Part shown: piece by piece, positions 2,012 through 61,727 of the stretch
Numbering within the stretch: position 1 is the stretch's first letter
Layout: every line of letters begins with the position of its first letter
Program-made: the position numbers and the translations under genes
NCBI GenBank assembly: GCA_035714365.1
Contig: DASTMB010000064.1
Span: 31,785-95,784 of the forward strand
Direction: 5' to 3'
From: Mycobacteriales bacterium
GTDB lineage: Bacteria > Actinomycetota > Actinomycetes > BP-191
DNA length: 64,000 nucleotides
Notes under the pieces: generated by a model
Database searches by the model: none
Told to the model about the DNA's origin: nothing
The model's input: only the letters and a program-made list of their open reading frames with translations

Positions 2012-3559
2012 ATGGCCGTCCGTACGCTCACCGCCTGGTGCCCCGACTGGCCCCTCGCGGCCGCCGGCATCGCCCCTGACGTCCCCGCCGCCGTGCTGTC
2101 GGGGGAGGAGGTGCTGGCCTGCACCGCCGCGGCCCGCGCCGACGGCGTCCGCCGCGGCCTGCGCCGCCGCGAGGCGCAACGCCGCAGCCCCGGCATCCGC
2201 CTGCTCCCGCGCGACGGCGACGCCGAGGCGAGGGCGTTCGAGCCGGTCGTCGCCTCGCTCGACAGCATCTGCCCGCGCGTCGAGGTGGTGCGGCCGGGGA
2301 CGGTGGTGTTCGCGACCAAGGGGCCGTCCCGCTACTTCGGCGGCGACGTGTCGCTCGCCGGCCTCGTCGCCGGGCAGCTCGACGACGCCGTCACCGGCCT
2401 CCCGGGCGTCGTGCGCGCGGCGCCGTGCCAGGTCGGCGTCGCCGACGGGCTGTTCGCGTCCCGGCTCGCCGCGCGGCAGGGGACGGTGGTGCCGCTGGGC
2501 GGCAGCGCGGCGTTCCTCGCGCCGTTCCCGGTGGCGGCGCTGGACCGGCCGGAGCTGGCCGACCTGCTGGTGCGGCTCGGGCTGCGCACGCTCGGCGCGT
2601 TCGCCGGGCTGCCGGCGTCGCGGGTGGCCTCCCGCTTCGGCGCCGACGGCCTGCTCGCGCACCGCCTCGCCCGCGGCCTGGACGAACGCCCCCTCGCCGC
2701 CCGCGAGATCCCGCCCGACCTCGCCGTCGAGTCGGAGGTCGACCCGCCGGCGGACCAGGTCGAGCCGCTCGCGTTCCTCGCCAAGACGCTCGCCGACACG
2801 CTGCGCGACGAGCTGGAGCACCGCGGCCTGGTCTGCACGCGGGTGCTGGTCGAGGCGGAGACCGAGCACGGCGAGACGCGCGGCCGGCTGTGGCGCCACG
2901 ACGGCGCCCTCACCGCTAACGCCGTCGCGCAACGCGTCCGCTGGCAGCTCGCGGGCTGGCTCGCCGGCCCGGCCGGCGACCGGCCCACCGCCGGCATCAC
3001 CCGGCTGCGCCTGGTGCCGGACGAGGTCCACCTCGACACCGGGCAGCAGCTCCCGCTCTGGGGCGGCGCCACCGATGCCGACGAACGCGCCGCCGACGCG
3101 CTCGCGCGCCTGCAGGGGCTGCTCGGCTTCGACGCCGTCCGGGTCGCCGTCCCGGCCGGGGGCCGCGCGCCCGACGAGACCGTCCGCCTCGTGCCGTGGG
3201 GGGAGCCCAAGGGGACGGTCTTCGACGGGACGCCGCCCTGGCCGGGGCGGCTGCCGGCCCCGTCGCCGTCGCTGGTGTACACCGACCCGCTGCCGTCGTC
3301 GGTGTGGGACCGGGCGGGCGCCGTCGTCACCGTGGACGACCGCGGCGAGCTGTCCGCGCCGCCCGCGCGGGTCGAGGTGCACAAGGCCGGCCGCGCCGGC
3401 GTCGTCGACTGGGCCGGCCCGTGGCCGGTGGACGAACGCTGGTGGGACGCCGGCGCCGCCCGCACCTCGGCGCGGGTGCAGGTCGTCACCGACGACGGCG
3501 CGGCGCGGCTGTTCGCCCGCGCGTACGGCGGCTGGTGGGTCGAGGCGGCCTACGACTGA
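2012..3559 (+). CDS. imuB: ImuB, Y-family-polymerase-like mutasome adaptor
   Basis: The 515-aa ORF reads MAVRTLTAWCPDWPLAAAG...EEVLACTAAARADGVRRGLRRREAQRRSP...VVRPGTVVFATKGPSRYFGG. The N-terminus is typical of ImuB, and the gene sits between imuA' and dnaE2. Confidence 0.85.
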   Translation: MAVRTLTAWCPDWPLAAAGIAPDVPAAVLSGEEVLACTAAARADGVRRGLRRREAQRRSPGIRLLPRDGDAEARAFEPVVASLDSICPRVEVVRPGTVVFATKGPSRYFGGDVSLAGLVAGQLDDAVTGLPGVVRAAPCQVGVADGLFASRLAARQGTVVPLGGSAAFLAPFPVAALDRPELADLLVRLGLRTLGAFAGLPASRVASRFGADGLLAHRLARGLDERPLAAREIPPDLAVESEVDPPADQVEPLAFLAKTLADTLRDELEHRGLVCTRVLVEAETEHGETRGRLWRHDGALTANAVAQRVRWQLAGWLAGPAGDRPTAGITRLRLVPDEVHLDTGQQLPLWGGATDADERAADALARLQGLLGFDAVRVAVPAGGRAPDETVRLVPWGEPKGTVFDGTPPWPGRLPAPSPSLVYTDPLPSSVWDRAGAVVTVDDRGELSAPPARVEVHKAGRAGVVDWAGPWPVDERWWDAGAARTSARVQVVTDDGAARLFARAYGGWWVEAAYD

Positions 3560-3719
3560 TGACACGTGCCGCCCGCCCCGCCGGACCTGCTGCGCGACGC
3601 CGTGACCGCGTCCGGCGGCGCCGGTCTCGTCGCGCGCAGCACCACTGCGCGCTCCTCGTCCTGCTGGCCGGCCCGCGCCCACGACGCCGCTCGCGACGGT
3701 TCGGCGAGGCGGGCGGCAC

Positions 3720-23394: not shown

Positions 23395-23469
23395 TGGCGC
23401 CCCCGGCAGGATTCGAACCTGCGCACCCGCCTCCGGAGGGCGGTGCTCTATCCCCTGAGCTACGGGGGC
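23395..23469 (-). tRNA. tRNA-Arg (anticodon CCG), CCA end encoded
   Basis: The reverse complement is GCCCCCGTAGCTCAGGGGATAGAGCACCGCCCTCCGGAGGCGGGTGCGCAGGTTCGAATCCTGCCGGGGGCGCCA. It folds as a cloverleaf with acceptor GCCCCCG/CGGGGGC, anticodon stem CCGCC/GGCGG, loop CTCCGGA and a T-loop TTCGAAT. Confidence 0.9.
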
Positions 23470-44138: not shown

Positions 44139-44291
44139 GTGCGCGTGGGTGTCGTCTACGTCAGTGCGGCCGTCGTCGCCGTCTGCGGCGTCGTGCGGTG
44201 GTGGCTGTACCTGCGGCTCTGCCGCCACGTGTTCGACCAGACGAAGGACCCGCAGGCGGTCGCGCGGGTGGCGCGGTCGGTGCGGCGGTGA
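44139..44291 (+). CDS. Possible small single-TM membrane protein (about 50 aa)
   Basis: GTG at 44139 or 44145 after GGGAG. V(R)VGVVYVSAAVVAVCGVVRWWLYLRLCRHVFDQTKDPQAVARVARSVRR. The only support is a hydrophobic helix followed by a basic tail. Confidence 0.3.
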   Translation: MRVGVVYVSAAVVAVCGVVRWWLYLRLCRHVFDQTKDPQAVARVARSVRR

Positions 44292-44394
44292 CGCCGGCCG
44301 CCCGGCCGTATCTGGTCACCATGGGCCATACCGGCGCGGACCGGGACGACGTAGCGTCGGTGAGTCACCTAGAGCACCGTGGGGGGTCGCGCGC

Positions 44395-47300
44395 ATGGCC
44401 GTTCGCCGCCGCGGGCTGCTCGCTGCGCTGGTGGCGGCGTTCCTGCTGCTCGGCGCGGCCCCCGCGACCGCGGCGCCGCCGGGCCGGCGGGTCTCCGGCA
44501 CGTACCGGCTGCTCGCGAAGGACGTGGTCGAGGGCGGCGGCCTGCGGCACGTCTACGAGGACGTGCTCGACACCGGCACCCGCATGCACCGGCTGCACCT
44601 GCCGCGCGGCCACGGGCTGCGCCCCGGCGACCGCGTGCTCGTCTCCGCCGACACGGCCGGTGACGGGAGCACGCTGAACGTCACGTCGTTCGCGCCGCTC
44701 GGCACGACGGCGGCGACCGCCACGACCGGCACGACGGACGTGCTGGTGGTGCTGGCGTACTGGACGGCGCCCGACTCGGTGACGCCGCAGCGGGCGTCGG
44801 ACCAGATCCTCGGCGACGACGACCGGTGGTTCCGCGAGGTGTCGTACGGCGCGGTCGGCCTGACCGGTGCGGTCACGCCGTGGCTGCGGATCCCGGCACC
44901 GGCCAACGGCCAGTGCTACGCGGGCGCGGACACGATCATGACCGGCGCGATCGACGCGGCCGGCCGGGCCGGGTACGCCGCGATCGGCTACGACCGGGTC
45001 GTCGTCTACTTCCCGCGCTGCACCGGCTCGGACACGAGCAACGTCGCCGGCTGGGCGTACGAGCCGGGCGCCCGCGTCTGGCTCAACGGGTACATGGACC
45101 GCCGCACGTCGGTGCACGAGCAGGGCCACAACTACGGCATGGGCCACGCCCGCGCGTACGCCTGCACGAACAACGGCGTCCGCGTCACGCTCGGCGGCAC
45201 CTGCGCGAGGTCGGAGTACGGCGACCCGTACGACGCGATGGGCCAGTCGTCGTACGCCGCCCACTTCGACGGCTACAACAAGTACGTGGCCGGCTGGCTC
45301 GGCACCCGGCGGCGCATCCTCACGACCTCGTCGTCGTCGTTCACGCTGCCGCCGTACGAGTCGGCGTCGGCGACGGCGCCGCAGGTCGTCGTCGCGAACT
45401 CGCCCACGCGCGGCTCGTACTGGCTCGAGTACCGGAGACCGGTCGGCTACGACGCGGCGCTGCCGGCGGGCGCGACCGGTGGCGTGCTGGTCCACCTGCG
45501 GGACACGGTCGTGGGCGTCGGCAACTACCTCCTCGACGGCACGCCGGGCGACGCGACGTTCGCGACGGCGGTGCTGCGCGCGGGCACGACGTGGACGGCG
45601 CCGGACGGCGTGCGCATCGCGGTCGGCAGCGCCACGTCCACGGGCATCGCGGTCAGCATCACCGGCGCCAGGCCGGAGCCGCAGGTGGCGACCGCGCCCC
45701 GGTCGTTCGCCGCGAGCGCGCGGGACATGGCGGTGCGGCTGACCTGGACGGCGCCGTCGTCCGACGGCGGCGCGGCGATCAGCGGCTACCGGGTCACGGT
45801 CGACCCGCCGCCGCCGGGGGGCGGCACCGGCGTCCTCGCCGCGAGCCCCAACGCCACCTCGCTGCTCGTCAGCGGCCTCGGCAACGGCACCACGTACACG
45901 TTCGAGATCCGCGCGCTCAACTCCGTCGGGCCGGGCGCGCCGGCCACCGCGCAGGCGGTCCCCGTCGTGCTGCCGCCGGTGGTGTCGATCACCTCGCCGG
46001 CCGACGGCGCGGCCCTCACCGGGCGGGTGACCGTCGTCGCGTCCGCCTCGCCGAACCCGCTCAGCGGCAGCGCGATCTCGCAGACCCGCCTCGTCGTCGA
46101 CGACCGGACCGTCGTGTACGGCTACGGCGCGCAGACGTCGTTCGAGTGGAACACCGGCACCGTCGCCAACGGCCGTCACCACGTCGAGGTCGTGGTGACC
46201 GACGCCAACTACCGCACCGCCGTCGCCGCCGTCGACGTGACGACCAGCAACCCGTTCCCGGTCGTCGCCGTCACCGCGCCGGCGGAGGGCACGACGTTCG
46301 ACGCCCCGCAGGTCGTGCTGGAGGCGGCGGCGTCGGTGCCGGAGGGCTCGACGGCGGCGATCCAGTCGGTGGCGTTCGAGGTCGACGGCTACCTGCGGGC
46401 GACCGTGTACTCCGCGCCGTACCGGATGACCTTCCCGACGATCGACAACGGCTGGCACTCGGTCGTCGCGGTCGCGACCGACACGAACGGCCTGACCGCG
46501 CGGTCCCGGCCGGTGTCGTTCGTCGTCTCGCACCCGCCGCCGACGGTGAAGATCACCTCCCCTGCCAACGACGCCGTCGTGCGCGGCACCAGCCTGACCA
46601 TCACCGCCGACGCGAGCGTCACCGCCAACGGCAGCGCGCTCGCCGAGGTGCGGTTCTGGGCCGGCTACCAGCCCATCGGTACCGACACCACCGCGCCGTT
46701 CACGGCGACGTGGGACATCAGCGGCCTCAGCGGCTCGGGCCGGGTGCAGGCCGAGGTCGTCGAGACGAGCGGCCGGCGCGCGACGACGTACCTCTCGGTG
46801 CGGATCGACAACGCGCTCCCGACGGCGACCCTGAACCTCACGTACAACCAGCCGTTCGACGCGAAGCCGATGACGCTGACCGGCACGGCGACCGCGCGGA
46901 CGGCGGGTGCCTCGGTGGCGCGAGTCGACCTCATGGTGGACAACGTCGCGGTGCCCGCGGAGGTGGCCGCCGACGGCACCTGGTCGGCGCCGTGGGACGC
47001 GACCGGCCGCTACGGCATCCACCGGGTGACGGTGGTCGCGTACGACTCCGCCGGGCTGCACTCGCCCACCCCCGTGTCGCAGTCGTTCCAGGTCGTGCGC
47101 CAGCCGCCCGCGGTCGTCTGGACGGCGCCGGAGGCCGGGTCCCTCGTGCCGGCCGGGACGGTGGACGTCGTCGCGTCGGCGACGCCCGGGACGTACGACA
47201 CGAGCACCGTGACGAGGATCTGCTTCCGCAAGACCATGCCGTGGTGGCAGTACGCGCCGGAGCTCGGCTGCGGCACCCTCGGCGACGACGGCCGGTACCA

Positions 47301-48255
47301 CCTCGCGTGGAACACCACGGCCGTGCCCGACGGGGCGTTCGCTCTGACGGCGGTGGTGTGGATGAGCGACGGCGCGACGTTCGCGGTGCCCGGCCCGACC
47401 GTGACGGTCGCGCGGCCGCCGCTCGCGCCGGAGGTCTACAGCGACGACGGCTTCGACGGCGACGCCGACCTCTGGTGGTCGACCGCGCCCTCCGCCGCGC
47501 CGGTGACGTCGTGGGTCGTCGCCGTGCCGGGGCGGGCACCGGTCACCGTCACCGAGCCGCGGGCCTACCTCACCGGGCTGGCGAACTGGCACACGTACGA
47601 CGTCGCCGTGAGCGCCGTCAACGCCATGGGCACCGGCCCGGCCACCCACGTCTCGGTCACGCCGGGGCTGCGCACGCGGATCGAGCTGACGTCGCAGCCG
47701 GCGCGCACGGTCGTCTACGGCAGCCGCGTGACGTTCGGCGCCGTCGTGTCGCGGCAGAAGGACGACCAGCCGGTGGCCGGCCGGACCGTCGAGCTCGTCG
47801 GCTGCCCGGTCGCCGGGCCGCCGTGCCCGGTCGTCGCCCGCGCGACCACCTCCGCGACGGGCATGGTCACCCTCTCCGCCGTGCCGCGCACGGGCACCGA
47901 CTACTACCTGCACGTGCCGGTGCAGGTCGCGATCGGCCAGTCGTACGTCTTCCCGCCACCGGTGTCGGTCTCGACCAAGGTGACCGGCACGTTCTCGGCC
48001 GGGCGGGTGCCGCTCGGCGCGACGTCGTACCTGCGCGGCTACGTCACGCCGGCGCGCACGGGCGGGTTCGTCTACCTCCAGCGGTACTACTCCGGCACCT
48101 GGCACAACGTCACGTACCGCACGATGAGCGCCACCGGCTACGTCTCGGTGCCGGTCAAGGTCGCGCGGGGGACGTACACGTACCGGCTCCGCTACGGCGG
48201 GGACGGCGGCCGCCTCCCCGGCGCCTCCCCCGCTCGAACACTCGTCGTGTACTAG
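44395..48255 (+). CDS. Large secreted metzincin-like metalloprotease (M11/gametolysin-like HExxHxxGxxH) with FN3 and multiple Ig-like domains
   Basis: ATG at 44395. Signal peptide MAVRRRGLLAALVAAFLLLGAAPATAAP. HEQGHNYGMGH at 45115-45147. An FN3 domain (RLTWTAPSSDGGAAISGYRV...TYTFEIRALNSVGPG). About 6 Ig-like repeats of the form V.ITSPA.GA...G.V.V.A.AS, then a second FN3. Confidence 0.7.
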   Translation: MAVRRRGLLAALVAAFLLLGAAPATAAPPGRRVSGTYRLLAKDVVEGGGLRHVYEDVLDTGTRMHRLHLPRGHGLRPGDRVLVSADTAGDGSTLNVTSFAPLGTTAATATTGTTDVLVVLAYWTAPDSVTPQRASDQILGDDDRWFREVSYGAVGLTGAVTPWLRIPAPANGQCYAGADTIMTGAIDAAGRAGYAAIGYDRVVVYFPRCTGSDTSNVAGWAYEPGARVWLNGYMDRRTSVHEQGHNYGMGHARAYACTNNGVRVTLGGTCARSEYGDPYDAMGQSSYAAHFDGYNKYVAGWLGTRRRILTTSSSSFTLPPYESASATAPQVVVANSPTRGSYWLEYRRPVGYDAALPAGATGGVLVHLRDTVVGVGNYLLDGTPGDATFATAVLRAGTTWTAPDGVRIAVGSATSTGIAVSITGARPEPQVATAPRSFAASARDMAVRLTWTAPSSDGGAAISGYRVTVDPPPPGGGTGVLAASPNATSLLVSGLGNGTTYTFEIRALNSVGPGAPATAQAVPVVLPPVVSITSPADGAALTGRVTVVASASPNPLSGSAISQTRLVVDDRTVVYGYGAQTSFEWNTGTVANGRHHVEVVVTDANYRTAVAAVDVTTSNPFPVVAVTAPAEGTTFDAPQVVLEAAASVPEGSTAAIQSVAFEVDGYLRATVYSAPYRMTFPTIDNGWHSVVAVATDTNGLTARSRPVSFVVSHPPPTVKITSPANDAVVRGTSLTITADASVTANGSALAEVRFWAGYQPIGTDTTAPFTATWDISGLSGSGRVQAEVVETSGRRATTYLSVRIDNALPTATLNLTYNQPFDAKPMTLTGTATARTAGASVARVDLMVDNVAVPAEVAADGTWSAPWDATGRYGIHRVTVVAYDSAGLHSPTPVSQSFQVVRQPPAVVWTAPEAGSLVPAGTVDVVASATPGTYDTSTVTRICFRKTMPWWQYAPELGCGTLGDDGRYHLAWNTTAVPDGAFALTAVVWMSDGATFAVPGPTVTVARPPLAPEVYSDDGFDGDADLWWSTAPSAAPVTSWVVAVPGRAPVTVTEPRAYLTGLANWHTYDVAVSAVNAMGTGPATHVSVTPGLRTRIELTSQPARTVVYGSRVTFGAVVSRQKDDQPVAGRTVELVGCPVAGPPCPVVARATTSATGMVTLSAVPRTGTDYYLHVPVQVAIGQSYVFPPPVSVSTKVTGTFSAGRVPLGATSYLRGYVTPARTGGFVYLQRYYSGTWHNVTYRTMSATGYVSVPVKVARGTYTYRLRYGGDGGRLPGASPARTLVVY

Positions 48256-48840: not shown

Positions 48841-49953
<1,113 letters not shown>

Positions 49954-49990
49954 TCACCCGGTCGGGTCTTCAGTGTCCGACTACGGGTAG

Positions 49991-50019
49991 TTGACACGCT
50001 CGCTACACAGTGTCACAGT
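49991..50019 (+). promoter_or_regulatory. Putative promoter: -35 TTGACA, 17-nt spacer, -10 CACAGT
   Basis: The same architecture recurs at 51011-51039 and, in weaker form, at 52281-52310. Confidence 0.4.
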
Positions 50020-50044
50020 CACTCGCTGTAACTACCCACTTCGG

Positions 50045-50135
50045 GGAAGCGACGATCCGCGGCCGTATCTCGGTCACCGGCCAGGCCGCGGGGAGCAAGT
50101 GGTGAGACCGGCCCCGGACTCGAGAGGAGTCCGTC
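50045..50135 (+). promoter_or_regulatory. Conserved 5' leader element, copy 1 (core 50045-50119 plus Shine-Dalgarno-sequestering hairpin 50116-50132)
   Basis: GGAAGCGACGATCCGCGGCCgtatctCGGTCACCggccaGGCCGCGGGGAGCaAGTGGTGAGACCGgCCcCGGACtcgagagGAGTCC. It is shared with copies 2 and 3. An in-frame TGA at 50103-50105 shows it is not coding. Confidence 0.6.
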
Positions 50136-51014
50136 ATGGTCGTCCGGTCTGCCCGCTCCACGGTCGCGGCGTTCGCCGCCACCGTCCTGCTGCTCGCCGC
50201 GCTCGTCACGCTGCTCACCCGCCCCGCCTCGGCCGCGCAGGCCACCGGCGGCCCGGCGCGCAGCGACAAGGCCGCCGCCGCGCAGGAGCAGAAGGGCCAC
50301 GGCAAGCCGAGCCCGGCCGCCACGACCTCCCCGCAGCCGAAGTCCAACGCCGACATGAACAAGGGCGGCGCCAACAACGGCGGCGACTGCGGCGCCTACT
50401 GCTCCACCCGCGACGGCTCGCCGTCCGGGAACGGCAACGGCAAGGGCGAGGCCAAGGGCAAGCCGTGCGCCGGCTGCGTCGGCAAGGCCGACAACAAGAA
50501 CCCGCCCGGCCAGCAGCCCGACGGCACCGACCACAACGCCGGCTACGAGTGCGACCGCAACCACGGCATCGGCCGGACCAACCCGGCGCACACCGGCTGC
50601 ACCCCCGCCCCGACCGTCCAGCCGACCGTGACGCCGACCACCCCGCCGCCGTGCGTGCCGACCGAGACCGAGCCGTGCGGCACGCCCACCGCGTGCGTGC
50701 CGACCGAGGCGGAGCCGTGCGGCACGCCCACCCCGTGCGTGCCGGCCGAGGGCGCCCCGTGCGGGAACCCGACCCCGACGCCGTCGGTGCTCCCCACCAC
50801 CCTGACCCAGACCCCCGCCCCGGAGACGGCCACGCCGCCCGCCCAGGTCAAGGGCGTCAAGCTCGTCCGCCCGGCCGCCACGGCCCCGAAGGTGCTCGGC
50901 GGCCGCCTGCCGAAGACGGGCTCGCCGGTGCCGGTGGCGCTGCTGCTGCTGGTGGGCTTCGGCACCATCGCGCTGGGTATCACTGTCACTGTCGCGACGC
51001 CCGCGTCGCGTTGA
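50136..51014 (+). CDS. LPXTG (LPKTG) cell-wall-anchored surface protein with a Cys-rich domain and a Cys-containing stalk repeat
   Basis: Signal peptide MVVRSARSTVAAFAATVLLLAALVTLLTRPASA. GDCGAYCS...KPCAGCVGKADNKNPPGQ...GYECDRNHGIGRTNPAHTGC. Three copies of CVPTExEPCGTPT. LPKTG followed by a hydrophobic tail. Confidence 0.8.
   Translation: MVVRSARSTVAAFAATVLLLAALVTLLTRPASAAQATGGPARSDKAAAAQEQKGHGKPSPAATTSPQPKSNADMNKGGANNGGDCGAYCSTRDGSPSGNGNGKGEAKGKPCAGCVGKADNKNPPGQQPDGTDHNAGYECDRNHGIGRTNPAHTGCTPAPTVQPTVTPTTPPPCVPTETEPCGTPTACVPTEAEPCGTPTPCVPAEGAPCGNPTPTPSVLPTTLTQTPAPETATPPAQVKGVKLVRPAATAPKVLGGRLPKTGSPVPVALLLLVGFGTIALGITVTVATPASR
50651..50776 (+). repeat. 3 x 42-nt tandem repeat encoding CVPTE(T/A)EPCG(T/N)PT(A/P/P)
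   Basis: The units lie at 50651-50692, 50693-50734 and 50735-50776. Units 1 and 2 are nearly identical and unit 3 has diverged. Confidence 0.9.
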
Positions 51015-51039
51015 CGTAACACAGGCTTACTGTCACAGT
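51011..51039 (+). promoter_or_regulatory. Putative promoter: -35 TTGACG, 17-nt spacer, -10 CACAGT (the -35 overlaps the upstream stop codon)
   Basis: TTGACGtaacacaggcttactgtCACAGT. It contains the palindrome ACTGTcACAGT. Confidence 0.4.
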
Positions 51040-51084
51040 TCGTGATAAGTACGACACGATCCGAAGGGGATCGTGACGTTCCGA

Positions 51085-51181
51085 GGAAGCGACGAGCCGC
51101 GGCTTTGTTCGGTCACCAGCCGGCCGCGGGGAGCGAGTGGTGAGACCGGCCTCGGACTGGTTCCCGGGAGGGAAAGTCCAC
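51085..51181 (+). promoter_or_regulatory. Conserved 5' leader element, copy 2 (core 51085-51157 plus Shine-Dalgarno-sequestering hairpin 51154-51179)
   Basis: GGAAGCGACGAGCCGCGGCtttgttCGGTCACCagccgGCCGCGGGGAGCgAGTGGTGAGACCGgCCtCGGACTggTTCCCgggaGGGAAAGTCC. Confidence 0.6.
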
Positions 51182-52096
51182 ATGTCGGCCTTCACGCGAC
51201 GTGCTCGCTACCTGACGTTCGCCGGTCTCGCGACGATCGGCCTCGCGGCCGCGGCGCAGCTCGCGGTGACGCCCGCGGCGACCTCCGTCGAGACGTACAC
51301 CGTGCCGCTCCACCAGGACACGCCCATCCAGAACTCCACCTACTCCGAGCAGGGCGACTGCCCGCTCTCGCCGTCGCAGTGGGGCTGGCACTTCGTGCTG
51401 CCCGGCCACGACGCGGAGTTCGTCTCGCTGACGGCGACGTTCGAGACGGCCGGCGAGGTCGAGGCGACGATCGGCGAGCCGACCGCGCAGCACGCCTACG
51501 TCTACACGGCGACCGACGACACGCTGCTCTCGGCGACGGCGGAGGTGACCGGCGGCGAGGTCGAGTTCTTCAACCTCTCGCACGTCTGCGCGGGCGGTGG
51601 CACGACCAGCGAGACGCCGACCCCGAGCGTGTCGGCCTCGGCGACCAAGACCCCCTCGGCCACCCCGAGCGAGACGCCCAGCGAGACCCCGAGCGAGACC
51701 CCGTCGGTGACGCCCACCGCCGAGGTGAGCGCGACCGAGACGGCGACCACGCCGCCGCCGACCACCGTGCCGCCGACGACGGTCCCGCCGACGTCCGAGA
51801 GCGCCACGCCGACCGCCGAGGTCAGCGCGACCGAGACCGAGACGGCGACGCCGACCGGCACCTCCGAGGTCCTGCCGACCCGCCTCACCAACACCCCGAC
51901 CCCGTCGGCCTCCGTCCAGGGCGTCAAGATCGTCCAGCCGCCGGCGGTCCTCCCGCGCCGCCTGCCCTCGACCGGCACCCCGGTCCCGGTGGCCGTCCTG
52001 CTGCTCCTCGGCTTCGGCATGGTCGCTGCCGGTGTCGTGACCACCGTCGCCGGTGAGCCCCGCACCGCGAGCGCCGACGGCCGTCACCGCCGCTAG
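51182..52096 (+). CDS. LPXTG (LPSTG) cell-wall-anchored surface protein
   Basis: ATG at 51182. Signal peptide MSAFTRRARYLTFAGLATIGLAAAAQLAV. A globular domain of about 130 aa, a Thr/Pro/Ser/Glu-rich stalk (SETPSETPSETPS, duplicated ATPTAEVSATET), then LPSTG, a hydrophobic segment and a basic tail. Confidence 0.8.
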   Translation: MSAFTRRARYLTFAGLATIGLAAAAQLAVTPAATSVETYTVPLHQDTPIQNSTYSEQGDCPLSPSQWGWHFVLPGHDAEFVSLTATFETAGEVEATIGEPTAQHAYVYTATDDTLLSATAEVTGGEVEFFNLSHVCAGGGTTSETPTPSVSASATKTPSATPSETPSETPSETPSVTPTAEVSATETATTPPPTTVPPTTVPPTSESATPTAEVSATETETATPTGTSEVLPTRLTNTPTPSASVQGVKIVQPPAVLPRRLPSTGTPVPVAVLLLLGFGMVAAGVVTTVAGEPRTASADGRHRR

Positions 52097-52134
52097 CGCA
52101 CACCGCGCGTAGCCGCGCGGACCCGTACCACCGC

Positions 52135-52167
52135 GAAAGGCCCGTCCCCTCCCGGGACGGGCCTTTC
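52135..52167 (+). terminator. Intrinsic-terminator-like hairpin (14-bp stem GAAAGGCCCGTCCC/GGGACGGGCCTTTC)
   Basis: It lies 39 nt after the stop codon. The 3' arm ends in TTTC. Confidence 0.65.
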
Positions 52168-52280
52168 GTGTACGCACCGTCACGTCCCGCGGCCGTTCGG
52201 TGATCACGCGGGACCCCGGAATGTCCTGTCTCGCAGCGATTCCGGACTCTCGGCCGGGCGAAGATGGTCCGAAGCGACCA

Positions 52281-52310
52281 TTGCCGCCCCCGGACACGCT
52301 GCGTCACGGT
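52281..52310 (+). promoter_or_regulatory. Putative promoter: -35 TTGCCG, 18-nt spacer, -10 CACGGT
   Basis: This is a weaker version of the two upstream promoters. It is followed by the inverted repeat GTCACGGT-N12-ACCGTGAC. Confidence 0.3.
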
Positions 52311-52356
52311 CGTGGAGCGCTCACCGTGACGACCGTCACGTGTCCGTGAGCGCCGG

Positions 52357-52458
52357 GGAAGCGAAGATCCGCGGCCGTCCTTGGACCGGTCACCGTACGC
52401 CGGGCCGCGGGGAGCGAGTGGTGAGACCGACCTCGGACCGTCCTCAGGAAGGCGTCCG
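52357..52458 (+). promoter_or_regulatory. Conserved 5' leader element, copy 3 (core 52357-52438 plus Shine-Dalgarno-sequestering hairpin 52435-52457)
   Basis: GGAAGCGAAGATCCGCGGCCgtccttggacCGGTCACCgtacgccgGGCCGCGGGGAGCgAGTGGTGAGACCGaCCtCGGACcgtcctcaggaaggcGTCC. Confidence 0.6.
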
Positions 52459-55400
52459 ATGTCGCATCGCAGGTTCCGTCCCCTCGCCGCACTCGTCGCG
52501 TTCGTGGTCGCGCTCGTCTGGCTGCCGCTGCTGGCCGGCCCGGCGAGCGCCGCCGGCCCGGTCCTCGTGCCGGACACGACCATCAACGGCTGCAACGGCG
52601 TCCTCCCGACGCCGGGCAGCGAGAACACCCACAAGCGGCTCGACCCGTCGTTCCCGAGCGACTTCAACCCGGGCGGCGTCGTCGGCTACATCGTCGACTT
52701 CCCGGTGTCGGCCGCCGACGTCGGCGGCGACTTCGAGATCACCGACTGCGTCTACGTCGACCCGCCCGGCGGCGGCACCGACGCGCCGATCGCGAAGTAC
52801 TTCGTGCACTTCGTGCCCAACGCCGAGGACTTCCACCTCCAGTTCGCCGTGCCGATCCCGGCGAACACGCCGCTCGGCTCGCAGTTCTGCAACTACGTCA
52901 AGACCACGGCCTCGCCGAGCGCCTCGCAGGCCAGCAACCGCAAGGCCGGCCCGGCCTGCTTCACCGTCGGCGGCGGCCTGCGCATCGAGAAGCGCACCGG
53001 TAGCACGACCGGCCCGCTGCTCCCCGGCGCGTCGTTCAGCGTCGTCTGCTCGCCGACGACCACGCAGCCGCCGACGATCATCACCGGCCTGTCGAACCAG
53101 AGCCACACCAACGCCAACGGCACCGTGTCGGCGACCGGCGTCGCGGACGACGGCACCATCGCGATCAACGGGCCCAGCGGCACGCCGTGCGTCGTCACCG
53201 AGACGGCGGCACCGGCCGGGTACCTGCTCGACGCGACGCCGCGCAACCTGGTCATCCCGGTCGGCGCCAGCCAGACCATCAACGTCTTCGTCAACCACCA
53301 GCAGGGCTCGCTCACCGTCACCAAGCACGCGGTCGGCGCGGGCGGCACGTTCCACTTCACCGTCTCCTGCGACGACGGCGAGACGTACGCGCCGTTCGAC
53401 CTGACCGTCGCCGCGGGCGCCACCGGCAGCCACCTGGTCAGCGACGCGATCGTCGTCGGCACCGAGTGCACCGTCGCCGAGACCGCGAACGCGCTGTTCT
53501 CGACGACCAGCTCGCCGGTCGACGGCACCGTCACGATCGACGCCGACGGCGAGACGGTCGCGTTCACGAACACGCGCCTCACCGGCTCGCTCGTCGTCAC
53601 CAAGACCTCGAACGAGGACGGCACGTTCCACTTCGACGTCGACTGCGACGGCACCGCGTACGACACGACGCTCGACATCACCACCGCGAGCGGCGCCGGC
53701 GACGCGCGCATCGACGGCATCCCGACCGGCACGAGCTGCACGGTCAGCGAGCAGTCGAACCCGCTGTTCTCCTCCGTCGTCGTCCCGGCCGGCGGCACCG
53801 TGACGATCGCCACCGGCGACACCACGGTGGCGTTCGCCAACACCCGCCTCACCGGCTCGCTCGTCATCACCAAGTCGGCGGACGTCAACGGCACGTTCAC
53901 GTTCGACGTCGAGTGCACCGGCACCGCCTACGACGCGACCGGCGTCACGATCACCACGACCGGCGGCAGCGGCTCGTACACGATCCCGAGCGTGCCGACC
54001 GGCACCGTCTGCACCGTCACCGAGCGGTCCGACGCCCACTGGACGACGCAGGTCGTGCCGGCCGACGGCACCGTGACGATCGCCACCGGCGACAACACGG
54101 TCGCGTTCACCAACACCCGCGTCCGGGGCGCGCTGAGCATCACCAAGTCGAGCGACGTGGACGGGACGTTCACGTTCGACGTCGACTGCTCGGACGACGC
54201 CTACGACGCGTCGAACGTCTCCATCACCACCGGCGGCTCCGGCTCGGCGTCGATCTCGGGCATCCCGACCGGCGTCACCTGCACCGTCACCGAGGACGCC
54301 GACCCGCACTTCACGGTCACCGTCGTCCCCGCGGACGGCACCGTCACGATCGACGCGAACGGCGAGACGGTGGCGTTCAGCAACGTCCGCGTCCGCGGCT
54401 CGCTGGTCGTGACCAAGGCGATCGTCGACGAGAGCCCGAACGCGGGCCTCGCGGCGTTCACCTTCCACGTGACCTGCGACGGGACCGCGCTGCCCGACTT
54501 CGAGCTCGGCACGCAGGCCGGCCTGGCGCTCTCGAAGACCATCGAGGGCATCCCGACCGACCAGGTCTGCACGGTCACCGAGGACCACGACCCGACCTGG
54601 TCGACCGTCGTCACGCCCACCGGCGGGACCGCGACGATCGGCACCGAGCCGGTGACGGTGGCGTTCACGAACACCCGGCAGTTCACCGACACGTCGATCA
54701 CGAAGTCCGCCGACCCGGTCTCCGGCACGGCGGTCACCGACGGCGACACGATCGAGTACACCGTCCACTACGCGAACGACGGGAACGTCGCCGACGAGAT
54801 CACCATCACCGACGCGATCCCGGCCGGTACGACGTACGTCGACGGCTCCGCGAGCGACGGCGGCACCCTGGCCGGCGGCACGCTGAGCTGGCACCTCACG
54901 GCCGGGCCCGGCACCTCCGGGGACGTGTCGTTCTCGGTCACGGTCGACGACGCACTGCCGGACCCGACCACGGTCGTCAACCAGGCGGTCCTTGAACAGG
55001 TCGGGCCGAAGATCACCCGGTCCAACAAGACCGAGCACCCGGTCGCGCACGTCAAGGTCGTGAAGTCGGTCGACAAGACCAGCGCCGCCTACGGCGACGT
55101 CCTGCTCTACACGCTGTCGGTCACCAACCCGTCGGCGGCCGACCTGACCGGCGTCGTGGTCACCGACCCGCTGCCGAAGGGCGTGACGTTCGTCGGCGCC
55201 AGCAACGGCGGCACCTGCGACAGCCCCTGCACGACGATCACCTGGCCGGCGCGCTCGCTGGCGGCGGGCGGGGCGTTCGACGTGACGTTCCAGGCGCGGA
55301 TCGTCCGCCCGGCCGCGGCGGCCGACGGCGCGATCCCGGCGGGCGTCATCGAGAACAGCGGCGCGGTCGACAGCACCGAGACCCCGAAGGTGCCGTCGAA

Positions 55401-55587
55401 CAAGGTCGTCACCAAGGTCACCGCGGTCGAGGGCACGAAGTTCATCAAGCCCCCGGTCCTCCCCCAGACCGGCGGCCCGATCTCCGACGCCGTCGCCCTG
55501 GCCCTCGGCCTGCTCCTCGCGGGCGCGGGACTGACTTTCGGTACGAGCTGGCGGGCCCGCCTCGCGAAGGCGGCCGGAGAGGAGTGA
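52459..55587 (+). CDS. Large LPXTG (LPQTG) surface protein/adhesin: SpaA/Cna-B-like domain, five tandem DUF5979-like repeats, two DUF11-like repeats
   Basis: ATG at 52459. Signal peptide MSHRRFRPLAALVAFVVALVWLPLLAGPASA. TETAAPAGYLLD. Five repeats of about 95 aa, of the form L(T/R)GSL.(V/I)TK......GTF.F.V.C.G......C TV(T/S)E....... V.F.NTR. Then ITKSADPVSGTAVTDGDTIEYTV and VVKSVDKTSAAYGDVLLYTLSV. LPQTG followed by a TM segment. Confidence 0.8.
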   Translation: MSHRRFRPLAALVAFVVALVWLPLLAGPASAAGPVLVPDTTINGCNGVLPTPGSENTHKRLDPSFPSDFNPGGVVGYIVDFPVSAADVGGDFEITDCVYVDPPGGGTDAPIAKYFVHFVPNAEDFHLQFAVPIPANTPLGSQFCNYVKTTASPSASQASNRKAGPACFTVGGGLRIEKRTGSTTGPLLPGASFSVVCSPTTTQPPTIITGLSNQSHTNANGTVSATGVADDGTIAINGPSGTPCVVTETAAPAGYLLDATPRNLVIPVGASQTINVFVNHQQGSLTVTKHAVGAGGTFHFTVSCDDGETYAPFDLTVAAGATGSHLVSDAIVVGTECTVAETANALFSTTSSPVDGTVTIDADGETVAFTNTRLTGSLVVTKTSNEDGTFHFDVDCDGTAYDTTLDITTASGAGDARIDGIPTGTSCTVSEQSNPLFSSVVVPAGGTVTIATGDTTVAFANTRLTGSLVITKSADVNGTFTFDVECTGTAYDATGVTITTTGGSGSYTIPSVPTGTVCTVTERSDAHWTTQVVPADGTVTIATGDNTVAFTNTRVRGALSITKSSDVDGTFTFDVDCSDDAYDASNVSITTGGSGSASISGIPTGVTCTVTEDADPHFTVTVVPADGTVTIDANGETVAFSNVRVRGSLVVTKAIVDESPNAGLAAFTFHVTCDGTALPDFELGTQAGLALSKTIEGIPTDQVCTVTEDHDPTWSTVVTPTGGTATIGTEPVTVAFTNTRQFTDTSITKSADPVSGTAVTDGDTIEYTVHYANDGNVADEITITDAIPAGTTYVDGSASDGGTLAGGTLSWHLTAGPGTSGDVSFSVTVDDALPDPTTVVNQAVLEQVGPKITRSNKTEHPVAHVKVVKSVDKTSAAYGDVLLYTLSVTNPSAADLTGVVVTDPLPKGVTFVGASNGGTCDSPCTTITWPARSLAAGGAFDVTFQARIVRPAAAADGAIPAGVIENSGAVDSTETPKVPSNKVVTKVTAVEGTKFIKPPVLPQTGGPISDAVALALGLLLAGAGLTFGTSWRARLAKAAGEE

Positions 55588-55596
55588 GTTGACACG

Positions 55597-55634
55597 CTGA
55601 CGGCCCGGCGGCCCGCGAGGCGCCGGGCCGTCAG
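55597..55634 (+). terminator. Stem-loop with a 14-bp perfect stem
   Basis: CTGACGGCCCGGCG gcccgcgagg CGCCGGGCCGTCAG, starting 10 nt after the stop codon. Confidence 0.6.
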
Positions 55635-55766
55635 CCTGTCCGGGGTCAGGCGGCGGTGGAGAGGGAAGCGGCGGCCGGGGAGCGGCGGCCGATCCCGCGA
55701 CTGAAGGGAGCGGCGCGCAGCGCCGCGGAATCTAGCGGGAGCGGTTGCCGCTCCCCGGGCGCCGCG

Positions 55767-55949
55767 TCAGTGGGTGTGCGCGGCGACAAGCACGGCGAGC
55801 GTGACGAGGAGCACGGCGAGGGCGGCGACCCAGTCCGGCACGACCGGGGCGGCGGCGTGCAGCCGGGCGCGGGCGGCGGCGCAGGCGGGGCAGCGGGCGT
55901 CCACGACGTGCCCCGCGCAGGAGGCACAGACCAGGTGCTCGCAGCACAC
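55767..55949 (-). CDS. Possible small zinc-ribbon plus single-TM protein (60 aa)
   Basis: GTG after [66 protein letters not shown]. It has a CxxC-x8-CxxC motif followed by a TM helix. It lies divergent from ftsE. Confidence 0.3.
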
Positions 55950-56028
55950 GCGCGAACGCTCCCTCACCGACGGCCGTAGACTCGGAAAGGAACCCTGTAC
56001 CCCGACACCCCCGAGGGGCAAACCCCGC

Positions 56029-56718
56029 ATGATCCGGCTCGACCACGTCACCAAGGTCTACCCGACGGCGACCAAGCCGGCGTTGAACGACGTCAGCGTC
56101 GACGTGGACAAGGGCGAGTTCGTCTTCCTGGTGGGCTCGTCCGGCTCGGGGAAGTCGACGTTCCTGCGGCTGCTGCTCAAGGAGGAGACGCCGACGACGG
56201 GCAGCGTGTTCGTCGCGGGGAAGGACCTGGCGCGGCTGTCGCACTGGAAGGTGCCGACGTTGCGGCGGCAGATCGGCTGCGTGTTCCAGGACTTCCGGCT
56301 GCTGCCGAACAAGACCGTCTTCGAGAACGTCGCGTTCGCGCTCGAGGTGATCGGCAAGCCGAAGCACTCGATCGACAAGGTCGTGCCGGAGGTGCTGGAC
56401 CTCGTCGGCCTGGACGGCAAGGCGGGGCGGCTGCCGGACGAGCTGTCGGGCGGTGAGCAGCAGCGGGTGGCGATCGCGCGGGCGTTCGTCAACCGGCCGA
56501 TGATCCTCATCGCGGACGAGCCGACGGGCAACCTCGACCCGACGACGTCGTTCGAGATCATGCGGCTGCTGGAACGCATCAACCGGACCGGGACGACGGT
56601 CGTCATGGCCACGCACGACGCGAACATCGTGGACTCGATGCGCCGGCGCGTGGTCGAGCTCGAGGGGGGTCGCGTGGTGCGCGACCAGGCCCGCGGCGTC
56701 TACGGCTACTCGAAGTAA
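56029..56718 (+). CDS. ftsE: Cell-division ATP-binding protein FtsE
   Basis: [12 protein letters not shown]...[17 protein letters not shown]...[33 protein letters not shown]. Confidence 0.95.
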
Positions 56719-56728
56719 GGAAGCGTTC

Positions 56729-57604
56729 GTGCGAGCTCAGTTCGTGCTGTCCGAGATCGGGATCGGTCTGCGGCGCAACATCACCATGACCGTCGCCGTC
56801 ATCGTCATCACCGCGGTGTCGCTGACGATGTTCGGGTCGGCGTTGATGATGCGCAACCAGGTCAACGGCATGAAGGACTACTGGTACGGCAAGGTCGAGG
56901 TCTCGATCTTCCTCAAGAAGGACGTGACGCAGGACCAGCGGGACCAGCTCCGGACCGAGCTCGAGTCGATGCCGGACGTCGAGCGCGTCTACTACGAGAG
57001 CAAGGACGACGCCTGGAAGCGGTTCAAGGAGCAGTTCAAGGACGCGCCGGACGTCGTGGCGAACACCGACCCGGACGTGCTGCCGGAGTCGTTCCGGGTG
57101 AAGCTGAAGGACCCGCGGAAGTTCGAGGTCGTGAGCAGCGCCTTCGCGGACCGGCCGGGTGTGGTGAACGTCTACAACCAGAAGGAGGTCCTGAAGAAGT
57201 TCTTCAAGGTCCTCAACGGCATCCGCTTCGCGATGCTGCTCTTCGCCAGCCTCAGCCTCGCCGCCGCCGCCGTGCTGATCGGGATCACGGTGCGGGTGGC
57301 GGCGTTCAGCCGGCGCCGGGAGACCGGCATCATGCGCCTCGTCGGCGCCTCGAACCTCTACATCCAGCTGCCGTTCCTGCTGGAGGGCGTGCTGGCGGGC
57401 GTCGCCGGCGCGCTGATCGCGACGGTGCTGCTGTCGGCGGCGCAGTGGGGGCTGATCAACAAGACGTTGCGGCCGGCGATCCAGGCGTTCCCGTGGACGG
57501 GCTGGAACCAGTTCTGGGTGATCGTGCCGATCCTCGTGCTCACGGGTGTGGCGCTCGCGGGCGCCTCGTCGTTCTGGACCCTGCGCAAGTACCTGCGGGT
57601 GTAG
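56729..57604 (+). CDS. ftsX: Cell-division permease-like protein FtsX
   Basis: 291 aa, GTG start. It has the FtsX topology and an extracellular domain, and follows ftsE. Confidence 0.9.
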   Translation: MRAQFVLSEIGIGLRRNITMTVAVIVITAVSLTMFGSALMMRNQVNGMKDYWYGKVEVSIFLKKDVTQDQRDQLRTELESMPDVERVYYESKDDAWKRFKEQFKDAPDVVANTDPDVLPESFRVKLKDPRKFEVVSSAFADRPGVVNVYNQKEVLKKFFKVLNGIRFAMLLFASLSLAAAAVLIGITVRVAAFSRRRETGIMRLVGASNLYIQLPFLLEGVLAGVAGALIATVLLSAAQWGLINKTLRPAIQAFPWTGWNQFWVIVPILVLTGVALAGASSFWTLRKYLRV

Positions 57605-57651: not shown

Positions 57652-58860
57652 ATGCGGGTCGGGCGGGTACGGCGGCTGGCCGCCGTCGCGCTGCTCGGCG
57701 CCCTGCTGCCGCTGACGCCCGCGCGCGCCGACGACCCCCATGCGCAACGCCGCGCCGTCCAGGCCCGGCTGGCGACCACCAAGGACGACCTGGACGAGGC
57801 GAGCGCCGTCGTCCGCGAGGCCGCCGCCGCGCTGTCGGCGACCGCCGCCGCCCTGCCGGGGGCACGGACGCGGCTGGCCGAGGCGGAGGGCCGGCTGTCC
57901 GCCGCTCAGGCCGCCGCCGGGGCGAGCGCCCGGGCCGCCGAGGCCGCGCGGCGCGACCTCGCCGCCGCCACCGCGTCGTACGCCGCCGCCGAGACCGCGC
58001 TGGGCGCCGCGCGCGAACGGGCGGGCGACGTCGCCAGGATGCTCTACATGACCGGCTCGGCGGGCCTCGCCGCCGCGCTGCTCGACGCGCGCACGCCCGC
58101 TGACCTGGCCGCGCGGGCGGCGTACACGCACGCGATCCTCGCCGACGGCGACGCCCGCGTCCGCGCCGCCGGCGACGCCCGGGTCGCGCTCGCCAACGCC
58201 GCCAGCCTGCTCGCCGCCCGCCGCGCCGCCGTCGAGGCCCGCGACGCCGAGGCACGGGCCGCGCTGGCCCGCGTCACCACCCTCGCCGAGGCCGCGCGGG
58301 CCGCCGCCGCCGAGGTCGAACGCCACGTCGCCGCCCGCCGCGCCGCCCTCGCCGTCGCCGCCCGCGAACGCGCCGCCGACCTCGCCCGCTACCGCGCGCT
58401 CGAGGCCGAGTCGGCGCGGCTCGCCGCGCTGATCCGCCGCCTCGCCGCGCGCCGCCCCAGCACCGTCCGAGTGTCCGTCTCCGGGCTGCTCTGGCCGACG
58501 CCGGGGCCGGTCACGAGCGGGTTCGGCTGGCGGATCCACCCGATCTACGGCTACCGCCGGTTCCACGCGGGCGTCGACATCGGCGCGCCCACCGGGCAGC
58601 CGATCGTCGCCGCGCTCGGCGGCGTCGTCGTCACCGCCGGCCCGCTCGGCACGTACGGCAACCTCGTCGTCGTCGACCACGGCAACGGCTTCGCCACGGC
58701 GTACGGCCACCAGTCCCGCGTGCTCGTCCGCGTGGGGCAGCGCGTGGCGCGCGGGGAGCGCATCGGGCTGGTCGGCGCGACCGGCGCGGCCACCGGCCCG
58801 CACCTGCACTTCGAGACCCGGGTCGACGGCGACCCGGTCGACCCCCTCCGTTACTTCTAG
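57652..58860 (+). CDS. Secreted coiled-coil M23 family metallopeptidase (EnvC/PcsB-like candidate FtsEX partner)
   Basis: Signal peptide, then a long Ala-rich coiled coil, then an M23 domain HAGVDIGAPTGQPIVA...GNLVVVDHGNGFATAYGH...ATGPHLHFE. Confidence 0.85.
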   Translation: MRVGRVRRLAAVALLGALLPLTPARADDPHAQRRAVQARLATTKDDLDEASAVVREAAAALSATAAALPGARTRLAEAEGRLSAAQAAAGASARAAEAARRDLAAATASYAAAETALGAARERAGDVARMLYMTGSAGLAAALLDARTPADLAARAAYTHAILADGDARVRAAGDARVALANAASLLAARRAAVEARDAEARAALARVTTLAEAARAAAAEVERHVAARRAALAVAARERAADLARYRALEAESARLAALIRRLAARRPSTVRVSVSGLLWPTPGPVTSGFGWRIHPIYGYRRFHAGVDIGAPTGQPIVAALGGVVVTAGPLGTYGNLVVVDHGNGFATAYGHQSRVLVRVGQRVARGERIGLVGATGAATGPHLHFETRVDGDPVDPLRYF

Positions 58861-60614: not shown

Positions 60615-61727
60615 ATGTCCGTTTCGGGCCGAGCACTACCGGGGATGGGGGCGGAGATGACTTCCGCAGACGACGCGCGACCCGTGACGTGGAGCGCGCA
60701 CGGGATCTCCCTCGCCACCAGGCCCGAGTTCGCGGCCGCCTCCGCGTCCACCCTCCGCCTGCTGCACCAGCAGCTCGGCCTCGACCTGTGGATGGTCACC
60801 CGCATCGACGCCGACGACCTCGTCGTCCTCGACTGCCTGGACTACGCCTACCGGCTCCGCCCCGGCGACGTGCTGCCCTGGTCCGCCAGCCTCGACTGGC
60901 GGATGGTCAACGGCCAGGGCCCCCGCGTCGCGCCCCGCATCGCCGACGTCCCCGCCTACGCCACCGCCGGCCTCACCCAGGTCATGCCCGTCGGCGCCTA
61001 CGTCGGCGTCCCCCTGCTGATCGACGGCCACGTCTTCGGCACCCTCAGCGGCCTCGACCCGCTGCCCCGCGACGACACCCTCGTCGCGGCGCTGCCGCTG
61101 GTCGAGACCCTCGCCGGGCTGCTGACCTCCGTCATCTCGCTCGAGCTGCGGTCCACCCAGGTCGTCCGCCGCGCCGAACGCGCCGAGGTCGAGGCCCACG
61201 TCGACCCCCTCACCCAGCTCGGCAACCGCCTCGCCTGGAGCAAGGTCCTGGTCGAGGAGGAGGCCCGCTGCCGCCGCTACGGCCGCCCCGCCTGCGTCAT
61301 CTCCGTCGACCTCGACGGGCTGAAGCGCCGCAACGACACCGAGGGCCACGACGCCGGCGACGCGCTGCTGCGGTCCGCCGCCCTCGTGCTGCGCCGCGTC
61401 TCCCGCATGTGCGACCAGGTCGCCCGCGTCGGCGGCGACGAGTTCGCGGTCCTCGCGGTCGAGGCGTCCGAGCTCGAGGGGCGCGCGCTGCTCGACCGGA
61501 TCGCGCACGCCTTCGCCACGGCGGGCGTGGAGGCGTCGCTCGGCATGGCGGTGCGGGAGGGTCACTCGACGCTCGGCGAGACGTGGAAGGCCGCCGACGC
61601 CGCCATGTACCGGCACAAGCGCCGCCGCCTCCAGGACCGCGTCTCCGCCGCCCTCGCCGCCCCCGAGGTGGCGCCCCAGGTCGTGCGCCACATCGAGGTG
61701 CCGGACTACTCCGCCGCGGGTTCCTGA
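60615..61727 (+). CDS. GAF-GGDEF diguanylate cyclase (start uncertain: 60615, 60645 or 60657)
   Basis: GAF-like N-terminus (LDLWMVTRIDADDLVVLD...YVGVPLLIDGHVFGTLSGLD). GGDEF domain DPLTQLGNRLAW...SVDLDGLKRRNDTEGHDAGDALL...ARVGGDEFAVL. Confidence 0.85.
   Translation: MSVSGRALPGMGAEMTSADDARPVTWSAHGISLATRPEFAAASASTLRLLHQQLGLDLWMVTRIDADDLVVLDCLDYAYRLRPGDVLPWSASLDWRMVNGQGPRVAPRIADVPAYATAGLTQVMPVGAYVGVPLLIDGHVFGTLSGLDPLPRDDTLVAALPLVETLAGLLTSVISLELRSTQVVRRAERAEVEAHVDPLTQLGNRLAWSKVLVEEEARCRRYGRPACVISVDLDGLKRRNDTEGHDAGDALLRSAALVLRRVSRMCDQVARVGGDEFAVLAVEASELEGRALLDRIAHAFATAGVEASLGMAVREGHSTLGETWKAADAAMYRHKRRRLQDRVSAALAAPEVAPQVVRHIEVPDYSAAGS

Follow-up and report, generated by a model that had tools for sequence, protein, structure and literature searches.

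Three c-di-GMP-II-GAG riboswitch aptamers, candidate translational ON switches, precede consecutive LPXTG surface-protein genes in a Mycobacteriales bacterium

Three consecutive genes for LPXTG-type surface proteins in a Mycobacteriales bacterium are each preceded by a copy of the same leader block, which raises the questions of what kind of element this block is and how it might control the genes behind it. The DNA analyzed, here called the window, is a stretch of 64,000 nucleotides (nt) of NCBI GenBank assembly GCA_035714365.1 (contig DASTMB010000064.1, positions 31,785 to 95,784 of the forward strand). A sequence-only reading of this stretch had described the block as a pseudoknot-capable non-coding leader and a candidate novel cis-regulatory RNA, and had named an Rfam search and covariation in homologous loci as checks. 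The elements turned out to be of an already known kind, the c-di-GMP-II-GAG riboswitch aptamer (c-di-GMP, cyclic diguanosine monophosphate), in the ordinary genomic setting of this family.

The element spans about 90 nt and occurs in three copies, 13-21 nt 5′ of the ATG codons at 50136, 51182 and 52459 and on the same strand (Table 1). Its composite motif, CGGTCACC-N3-12-GGCCGCGGGGAGCNAGTGGTGAGACCG, matched three times in the window (50071-50110, 51110-51148 and 52387-52429, all on the plus strand) at a chance expectation of 0.00 in 100 dinucleotide shuffles of the window, and a search of the window with a 23-nt core and up to three mismatches found no fourth copy. Pairwise identity of the three aptamers is 77-83%; across the units, it is 49-54% in the 90 nt upstream of the aptamers and 59-61% in the first 90 nt of the coding sequences. 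The repeat had been located correctly in front of the three ATGs, but the 5′ ends then given to the block were about 9 nt short, by which the outer strand of helix P1 was missed.

It is hardly credible that the block is translated as an N-terminal extension of each protein. Longer open reading frames (ORFs) starting at GTG 51137 and TTG 52381 are in the ORF list and do cross copies 2 and 3, but the distance from the conserved block to the ATG is 35, 43 and 39 nt in copies 1-3, which gives three different frames, and in copy 1 a TGA (50103-50105) is in frame with the ATG at 50136. Furthermore, Shine-Dalgarno (SD) sequences precede the ATGs, and conservation is found at the level of nucleotides and structure. 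Because of the three frames and the in-frame TGA, the extended ORFs are regarded as high-GC artefacts, and the earlier description of the block as non-coding holds.

For family assignment, Rfam cmscan was run on positions 49900-52600 at a permissive threshold and on the whole window at gathering thresholds. All three copies matched RF03169, the c-di-GMP-II-GAG riboswitch aptamer of clan CL00127, over model positions 1-86 of 86, with 74.1, 67.5 and 64.4 bits for copies 1, 2 and 3 (E-values 2.2e-14, 1.1e-12 and 6.7e-12) against a gathering score of 40. The canonical c-di-GMP-II model (RF01786) was not the top model of the clan; cmscan kept RF03169 and suppressed six lower-scoring overlaps of the same clan. 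The sole other Rfam match in the window at gathering thresholds was a tRNA at 23398-23469. Against the covariance model built in this study, aptamer 1 scored 83.4 bits. The GAG signature GGTGAGACCG of the 3′ pseudoknot strand, from which the variant takes its name and which we take to be the position setting the variant apart from canonical class II, was found in all three copies. c-di-GMP-II-GAG was reportedly described among variant riboswitch classes by Weinberg et al. in PNAS in 2017. The three elements are thus almost certainly members of this catalogued family. With a significant match to an existing Rfam family the novelty proposed by the sequence-only reading falls, and so does its statement that the block could not be reconciled with c-di-GMP-II; class II was probably missed since the GAG variant departs from the canonical consensus in the strand examined.

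To follow the fold in relatives, one representative genome per species was scanned for GGAGCNRGTGGYGAGACCGNCC, yielding at least 120 loci (numbered with the prefix L), almost all of them in metagenome-assembled genomes (MAGs) of Actinomycetota (Acidimicrobiia, Nitriliruptoraceae, Frankiales/Frankiaceae, Acidothermaceae, Mycobacteriales and Coriobacteriia), with a few in MAGs labelled as Acidobacteriota or other phyla. About 9 of the 126 pattern hits were false matches in coding sequences, and eight of these (L009, L052, L059, L078, L084, L090, L097 and L116) were excluded from the covariance-model search. The model was built from 14 cleanly aligned seeds, and all sequences were then realigned by it. 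Among the matches listed, it found 131 elements in 100 sources, mostly from Actinomycetota. In 18 loci rescanned with Rfam, the model-found elements were all RF03169.

The alignment of these 131 sequences contained standard pairs in 88.4% of the cells versus 71.4% after shuffling, and pairing fell to 30-42% when partners were slid by 1-3 columns. Double-sided compensatory changes occurred at 18 of 27 pairs, the pseudoknot included. Helix P2, in the window an 8-bp stem CCGCGGCC/GGCCGCGG present in all three copies, was 96.8% paired and changed on both sides at all eight pairs. The pseudoknot, in which the P2 loop (CGGUCRCC) pairs with the 3′ joining strand (GGYGAGACCG), was 98.7% paired, a value to be read with the fixed GGYGAGACCG of the search pattern in mind, by which the conservation of that strand, though not of the free loop strand, is partly given by construction. 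In all three window copies the loop CGGTCACC is complementary to GGT-GA-GACCG. At one pseudoknot pair, 80 sequences had A-U and 33 had G-C, and the three unpaired cells there coincided with rows in which the loop motif seems out of register; in the window copies this pair is A-U (CGGUCACC / GGUGAGACCG), while the Rfam consensus is C-G. Helix P1b was 93.3% paired, with A·A or A·G instead of G-C as its innermost pair in the window. Within P1, the inner four of eight modelled pairs hold in most relatives, and the helix overall was 68% paired. The nested helices and the pseudoknot are supported by covariation, so that both the stem of 7-8 bp (CCGCGGC/GCCGCGG) and the H-type pseudoknot that had been drawn from the three window copies are borne out in homologous loci.

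These changes also bear on the idea that the repeat acts as DNA, being either a transcription-factor operator or a small dispersed repeat copied together with the genes. The close similarity of the copies and their position near promoter-like motifs would be in line with it. However, double-sided changes of the kind found here are expected of an RNA fold rather than of a protein-binding site, every copy is in sense orientation and follows the promoter motif, and the matches to the curated covariance model are far above threshold; a role as DNA is therefore considered very improbable.

As the gap between aptamer and AUG measures only 13-21 nt, no intrinsic terminator fits into it, and control should therefore be exerted on translation initiation or mRNA stability. 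In the three window copies and in four orthologous ones, the 3′ strand of P1, which reads CGGAC (in one ortholog CGGGC), can pair with (G/A)UCCG at or immediately 5′ of the start codon, and the SD sequence lies inside the hairpin formed by the P1 3′ strand and the start-codon region. Local folding gave -12.5, -14.3 and -11.1 kcal/mol for the anti-SD hairpins of copies 1, 2 and 3 and -10.5, -11.3 and -9.8 kcal/mol for the P1 core duplexes, a rough comparison, as nested minimum free energy (MFE) folding cannot represent the pseudoknot; whole-leader folds with P1 forced gave non-native aptamers, and only local hairpin and duplex energies were used. The hairpin of platform 1 also appears in the MFE fold of its leader. 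Over the family as a whole, the 22-nt stretch that ends at the start codon was more complementary to the P1 3′ strand than its shuffled versions in 74 of the 86 cases compared (median z -1.0), and many relatives have a near-perfect match between this strand and the ribosome-binding zone, e.g. CCUGUCCCAU versus GAAGGGAUAGG.

Such an arrangement would be that of a typical translational ON switch. Each aptamer would belong to the 5′-untranslated region of a separate transcription unit that encodes one sortase-anchored surface protein, and the P1 3′ strand CGGAC would either close the aptamer or pair with GUCCG at the ribosome-binding site and start codon. Without ligand, the hairpin sequestering the ribosome-binding site would win. 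With ligand, the pseudoknotted aptamer would lock P1 and thereby remove the anti-SD strand, SD and AUG would be exposed, and translation would increase. High c-di-GMP would thus switch on the display of all three surface proteins together. Judged from sequence and modelled pairing, it is moderately probable that the elements are translational ON switches responding to c-di-GMP by this mechanism.

The ligand is presumably c-di-GMP, which is the most probable candidate by analogy because both the name of the family and its clan point there. The sequence-only reading had called any link to a second messenger pure speculation; RF03169 is named for c-di-GMP, while the link to the GAF-GGDEF protein encoded about 5 kb downstream, a candidate diguanylate cyclase, remains context only. 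One of the related loci, L024, combines in a single 8-kb stretch two GAG aptamers, a gene for an LPFTG adhesin behind a GAG aptamer (1334-4648, +), a sortase gene (PF04203; 5755-6468, +) and a canonical c-di-GMP-I riboswitch (RF01051, 41.7 bits; 5523-5615, -), the latter 5′ of a gene for a secreted HExxH protein matching no Pfam family (4775-5710, -).

In addition to the reservations attached above to the pseudoknot and energy values, several points weigh against a c-di-GMP-responsive ON switch. The outer P1 pairs are mismatched in all three window copies, and the outer four of the eight modelled pairs are standard in less than 60% of the relatives. In copy 2, a 5-bp helix containing the SD sequence can persist with P1 formed, and the switch logic is least clear there. 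A scan with an E. coli-type consensus finds no promoter at the locus. The abstract of the 2017 PNAS article by Weinberg et al. is said to state that variants 'might recognize different bacterial signaling molecules'. Published ligand validation for the GAG variant was not found in the reachable literature, a 2022 list of validated specificity changes by the discovering laboratory is without it (PMC9295807), and it is not described in the 2017 NAR paper on 224 motifs.

The behavior of copy 2 would suit OFF switches, in which ligand represses translation or destabilizes the mRNA, and the SD sequences start only 0-6 nt past the 3′ end of the Rfam P1, where a compact bound fold could hinder the ribosome. 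But the SD sequence is not part of the aptamer and can itself pair with the P1 3′ strand, so that formation of P1 frees it; this complementarity is family-wide, and characterized class II switches are ON (PMC6200980). We consider the OFF logic distinctly improbable.

More weight, though still well short of an even chance, is given to the same aptamer family and ON architecture serving a ligand other than c-di-GMP, e.g. another cyclic dinucleotide or a linear breakdown product. The pocket nucleotides differ from canonical class II, the 3′ pseudoknot strand presumably being G(C/U)GAGACCG in the GAG variant versus GCAACCG in the canonical class at ligand-contacting positions. A separate Rfam model, RF03169, outscores canonical c-di-GMP-II here, the wording ascribed to the 2017 abstract points the same way, and mutations in a conserved pocket usually mean changed specificity, with further proposed changes remaining unvalidated (PMC9295807). 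Against this reading stand the downstream genes, which like the targets turned on by canonical c-di-GMP-II code for adhesins and surface anchors dependent on sortase (PMC6200980, PMC9481103), the GGDEF cyclase gene in the neighborhood, and the presence of a canonical c-di-GMP-I riboswitch within the adhesin/sortase locus L024. It also appears unlikely, to a similar degree, that the whole GAG class senses a different nucleotide second messenger or c-di-GMP at a markedly shifted threshold. If this were true, the signal governing surface-protein display in many Actinomycetota would be one so far not linked to any riboswitch of this fold.

Table 1. Features of the three leader-gene units and of the downstream cyclase candidate (window coordinates; SD, Shine-Dalgarno sequence).
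Feature	Position	Strand	Details
Promoter-like motif, unit 1	49991-50019	+	TTGACA (49991-49996), 17-nt spacer, CACAGT (50014-50019), TGT just before CACAGT
Aptamer 1	50036-50122	+	RF03169, cmscan
Aptamer 1, P1	50036-50046 with 50112-50122	+	
Aptamer 1, P2	50057-50064 with 50084-50091	+	
Aptamer 1, pseudoknot	50071-50078 with 50101-50110	+	
Expression platform 1 (predicted)	50115-50133	+	CGGACUC (P1 3′ strand) with GAGUCCG; SD GAGAGGAG (50122-50129) enclosed
Gene 1	50136-51014	+	292 amino acids (aa), secreted, LPKTG anchor
Promoter-like motif, unit 2	51011-51039	+	TTGACG (51011-51016, over gene 1 stop codon), 17-nt spacer, CACAGT (51034-51039)
5′ leader hairpin before aptamer 2	51051-51079	+	Folding
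Aptamer 2	51076-51160	+	RF03169, cmscan
Expression platform 2 (predicted)	51154-51179	+	GGACU/AGUCC plus UUCCC/GGGAA hairpin; SD GGGAGGGAA enclosed; ATG 51182
Gene 2	51182-52096	+	304 aa, secreted, LPSTG anchor
Terminator-like GC-rich hairpin after gene 2	52136-52170	+	GAAAGGCCCGUCCC ... GGGACGGGCCUUUC then UUUCGUGU
Promoter-like motif, unit 3	52281-52310	+	TTGCCG (52281-52286), 18-nt spacer, CACGGT (52305-52310)
5′ leader hairpin before aptamer 3	52317-52353	+	
Aptamer 3	52348-52441	+	RF03169, cmscan; longer P2 loop, 26 nt
Expression platform 3 (predicted)	52433-52459	+	UCGGAC (P1 3′ strand) with GUCCGA, reaching A of AUG; SD AGGAAGG enclosed
Gene 3	52459-55587	+	1042-aa adhesin-like surface protein, LPQTG anchor
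GAF-GGDEF protein, candidate diguanylate cyclase	60615-61727	+	Pfam

The genes behind the aptamers are consistent with a common role at the cell surface. Signal-peptide-like N termini were found in all three products of the window, and their C termini carry LPKTG, LPSTG and LPQTG (genes 1, 2 and 3) followed by a hydrophobic stretch and a terminal R/K; gene 1, with a single terminal R, fails a strict sorting-signal heuristic. No Pfam family matched the products of genes 1 and 2, while that of gene 3 contains SpaA, five DUF5979, DUF7601, DUF11 and DUF7927 domains and passes NCBIfam TIGR01167 (LPXTG_anchor) with 18.4 bits at a cut-off of 15.9. The earlier view of all three as sortase substrates is in accordance with these data. 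A search for the motif TLxTC found no sortase gene in the window. Gene 1 also encodes a Cys-rich motif, NxGYECDxNxGxGxxNPAHTGC (region 50500-50600), which has no Pfam match and recurs in otherwise dissimilar proteins after GAG aptamers (L017:1067-1190 and L074:2241-2375).

A census of family members with an ORF start within 130 nt, taken among the matches listed, comprised 122 ORFs, 88 of them complete. Signal-peptide-like N termini were present in 111 of the 122, and at least 54 of the 88 passed a strict test for an LPXTG-type sorting signal, this being a lower bound since the ORF picker, based on G+C at third codon positions (GC3), at times took a wrong frame or start. LPFTG was by far the commonest sorting motif. 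Two to three aptamers within 8 kb on one strand, one per consecutive gene and typically 0.9-2 kb apart, occurred in 26 of the 100 sources, and three-aptamer loci like that of the window were L022, L023, L081 and L089. The arrangement of one aptamer per gene before surface-protein genes is not unusual for RF03169. What had been proposed as a dedicated module for surface display does stand before sortase-substrate genes, but it is the ordinary gene association of the family.

Some further variation within the family was observed. An additional hairpin can be accommodated in the P2 loop, 5′ or 3′ of the pseudoknot strand (e.g. L043, L045, L048, L049, L055 and L057 versus L022, L025 and L069): Mycobacteriales/Frankiales-type sequences have the insert 5′ of this strand, often as CCUCACCGAC...GCACGGAGA, and Nitriliruptoraceae have it 3′ of the strand. 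L011:5528-5803 (-) and L107:4005-4259 (-) contain true tandem aptamers, 157-182 nt apart with no gene between. In seven loci labelled Acidobacteriota (L007, L018, L038, L062, L091, L092 and L115), aptamers and LPFTG genes are of almost the same type as in Acidimicrobiia loci such as L008, L027, L046 and L067, which points to binning errors or to a wrong lineage label.

Among the matches listed, the Frankiaceae MAG loci L087 and L073 are closest to the window locus; they contain orthologs of genes 1-3, each with its own aptamer. Protein identity is 52% for gene 1 (L087), 55% and 49% for gene 2 (L073 and L087), and 80% over 226 aa for gene 3 (L087/L073 loci), i.e. both arrays keep the aptamers and the promoter motif at protein identities of 49-80%. 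The motif GTTGAC-N17-TGTCAC(A/T/G)(G/A)T is common to the units of the window and, at the same distance from the aptamer, to the orthologous units in L087 and L073, with differing spacers; the motif of unit 3 is nearly identical in the orthologous L073 locus. Each unit may thus be transcribed from a promoter-like TTGAC-N17/18-CAC(A/G)GT about 15-40 nt 5′ of the aptamer, with transcription starting at a predicted 10-30 nt upstream of the aptamers. Because of the negative E. coli-type scan, this promoter call relies on motif conservation in the orthologous loci. A regulator might also bind to the TGTCAC core.

In units 2 and 3, the leader 5′ of the aptamer, downstream of the predicted start, folds into a stable hairpin that overlaps the poorly paired outer P1; copy 1 is without such a hairpin. 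A terminator scan gave one irrelevant terminator-like site only, and the hairpin after gene 2 was not listed by it owing to its too short T-run. Two matches to the Thr_leader model (RF00506) at 52099-52204 were sub-threshold (39 and 23 bits versus a gathering score of 55) and were rejected as false positives caused by this terminator-like hairpin.

The three-gene cluster is flanked by prfB (48841-49953) and ftsE/ftsX (about 55990-57604) and looks like an insertion into a conserved housekeeping neighborhood (48841-57604). An M23 peptidase gene (57652-58860) follows ftsE/ftsX, and just 5′ of prfB lies a gene without an aptamer in front (44149-48255, +), whose secreted product of about 1286-1368 aa contains fn3 and three Big_7 Ig-like domains. 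The cyclase candidate noted earlier at about 5 kb downstream was confirmed by Pfam (PF00990, 92.8 bits; PF01590, 27.5 bits), with the GGDEF motif at residue 272; as candidate context for the riboswitches, its link to them is speculative.

Compared with known systems, the window elements share with RF03169 the P1/P2 helices, the pseudoknot, the GGYGAGACCG strand, the occurrence mostly in Actinomycetota and the type of downstream gene, and differ in nothing of substance, having a U-A pseudoknot pair and the A·A or A·G pair in P1b. With canonical class II (RF01786; C. difficile Cdi-2-2 and Cdi-2-3) they have in common the clan, the fold type with a pseudoknot between hairpin loop and 3′ tail and, as predicted here, the ON logic, whereas canonical class II hosts are Firmicutes. 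In C. difficile, class II c-di-GMP riboswitches are uniformly ON and induce sortase-dependent surface proteins and pili (PMC6200980), and in Paraclostridium, surface-anchor genes are preceded by tandem class II riboswitches (PMC9481103). For the C. difficile switches, the measurements were of transcript levels, whereas the spacing in the window fits translational control only. The Bc2 c-di-GMP-I riboswitch of Bacillus thuringiensis before the collagen adhesion protein gene (cap/cbpA) is likewise a c-di-GMP-responsive leader of an LPXTG-type adhesin (PMC4933901, PMC7423583), the response to c-di-GMP being presumed in our case, but Bc2 has a class I (GEMM) aptamer fold and acts by transcription termination. 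Locus L024 resembles the C. difficile circuit of a class I riboswitch with the ZmpI protease versus class II with an adhesin.

The discovery value of these elements is small, as any Rfam-based annotation would label them. Pseudoknot covariation, the association with LPXTG/LPFTG proteins, arrays with one aptamer per gene, and the complementarity between P1 3′ strand and ribosome-binding site were not found stated in the reachable literature, and the comparative data on them are given here. The locus itself is a clean case, with three consecutive surface-protein genes, each with its own predicted promoter, aptamer and ribosome-binding-site-occluding platform, and it is well suited to testing which ligand the GAG variant binds and whether its switches work as ON or OFF.

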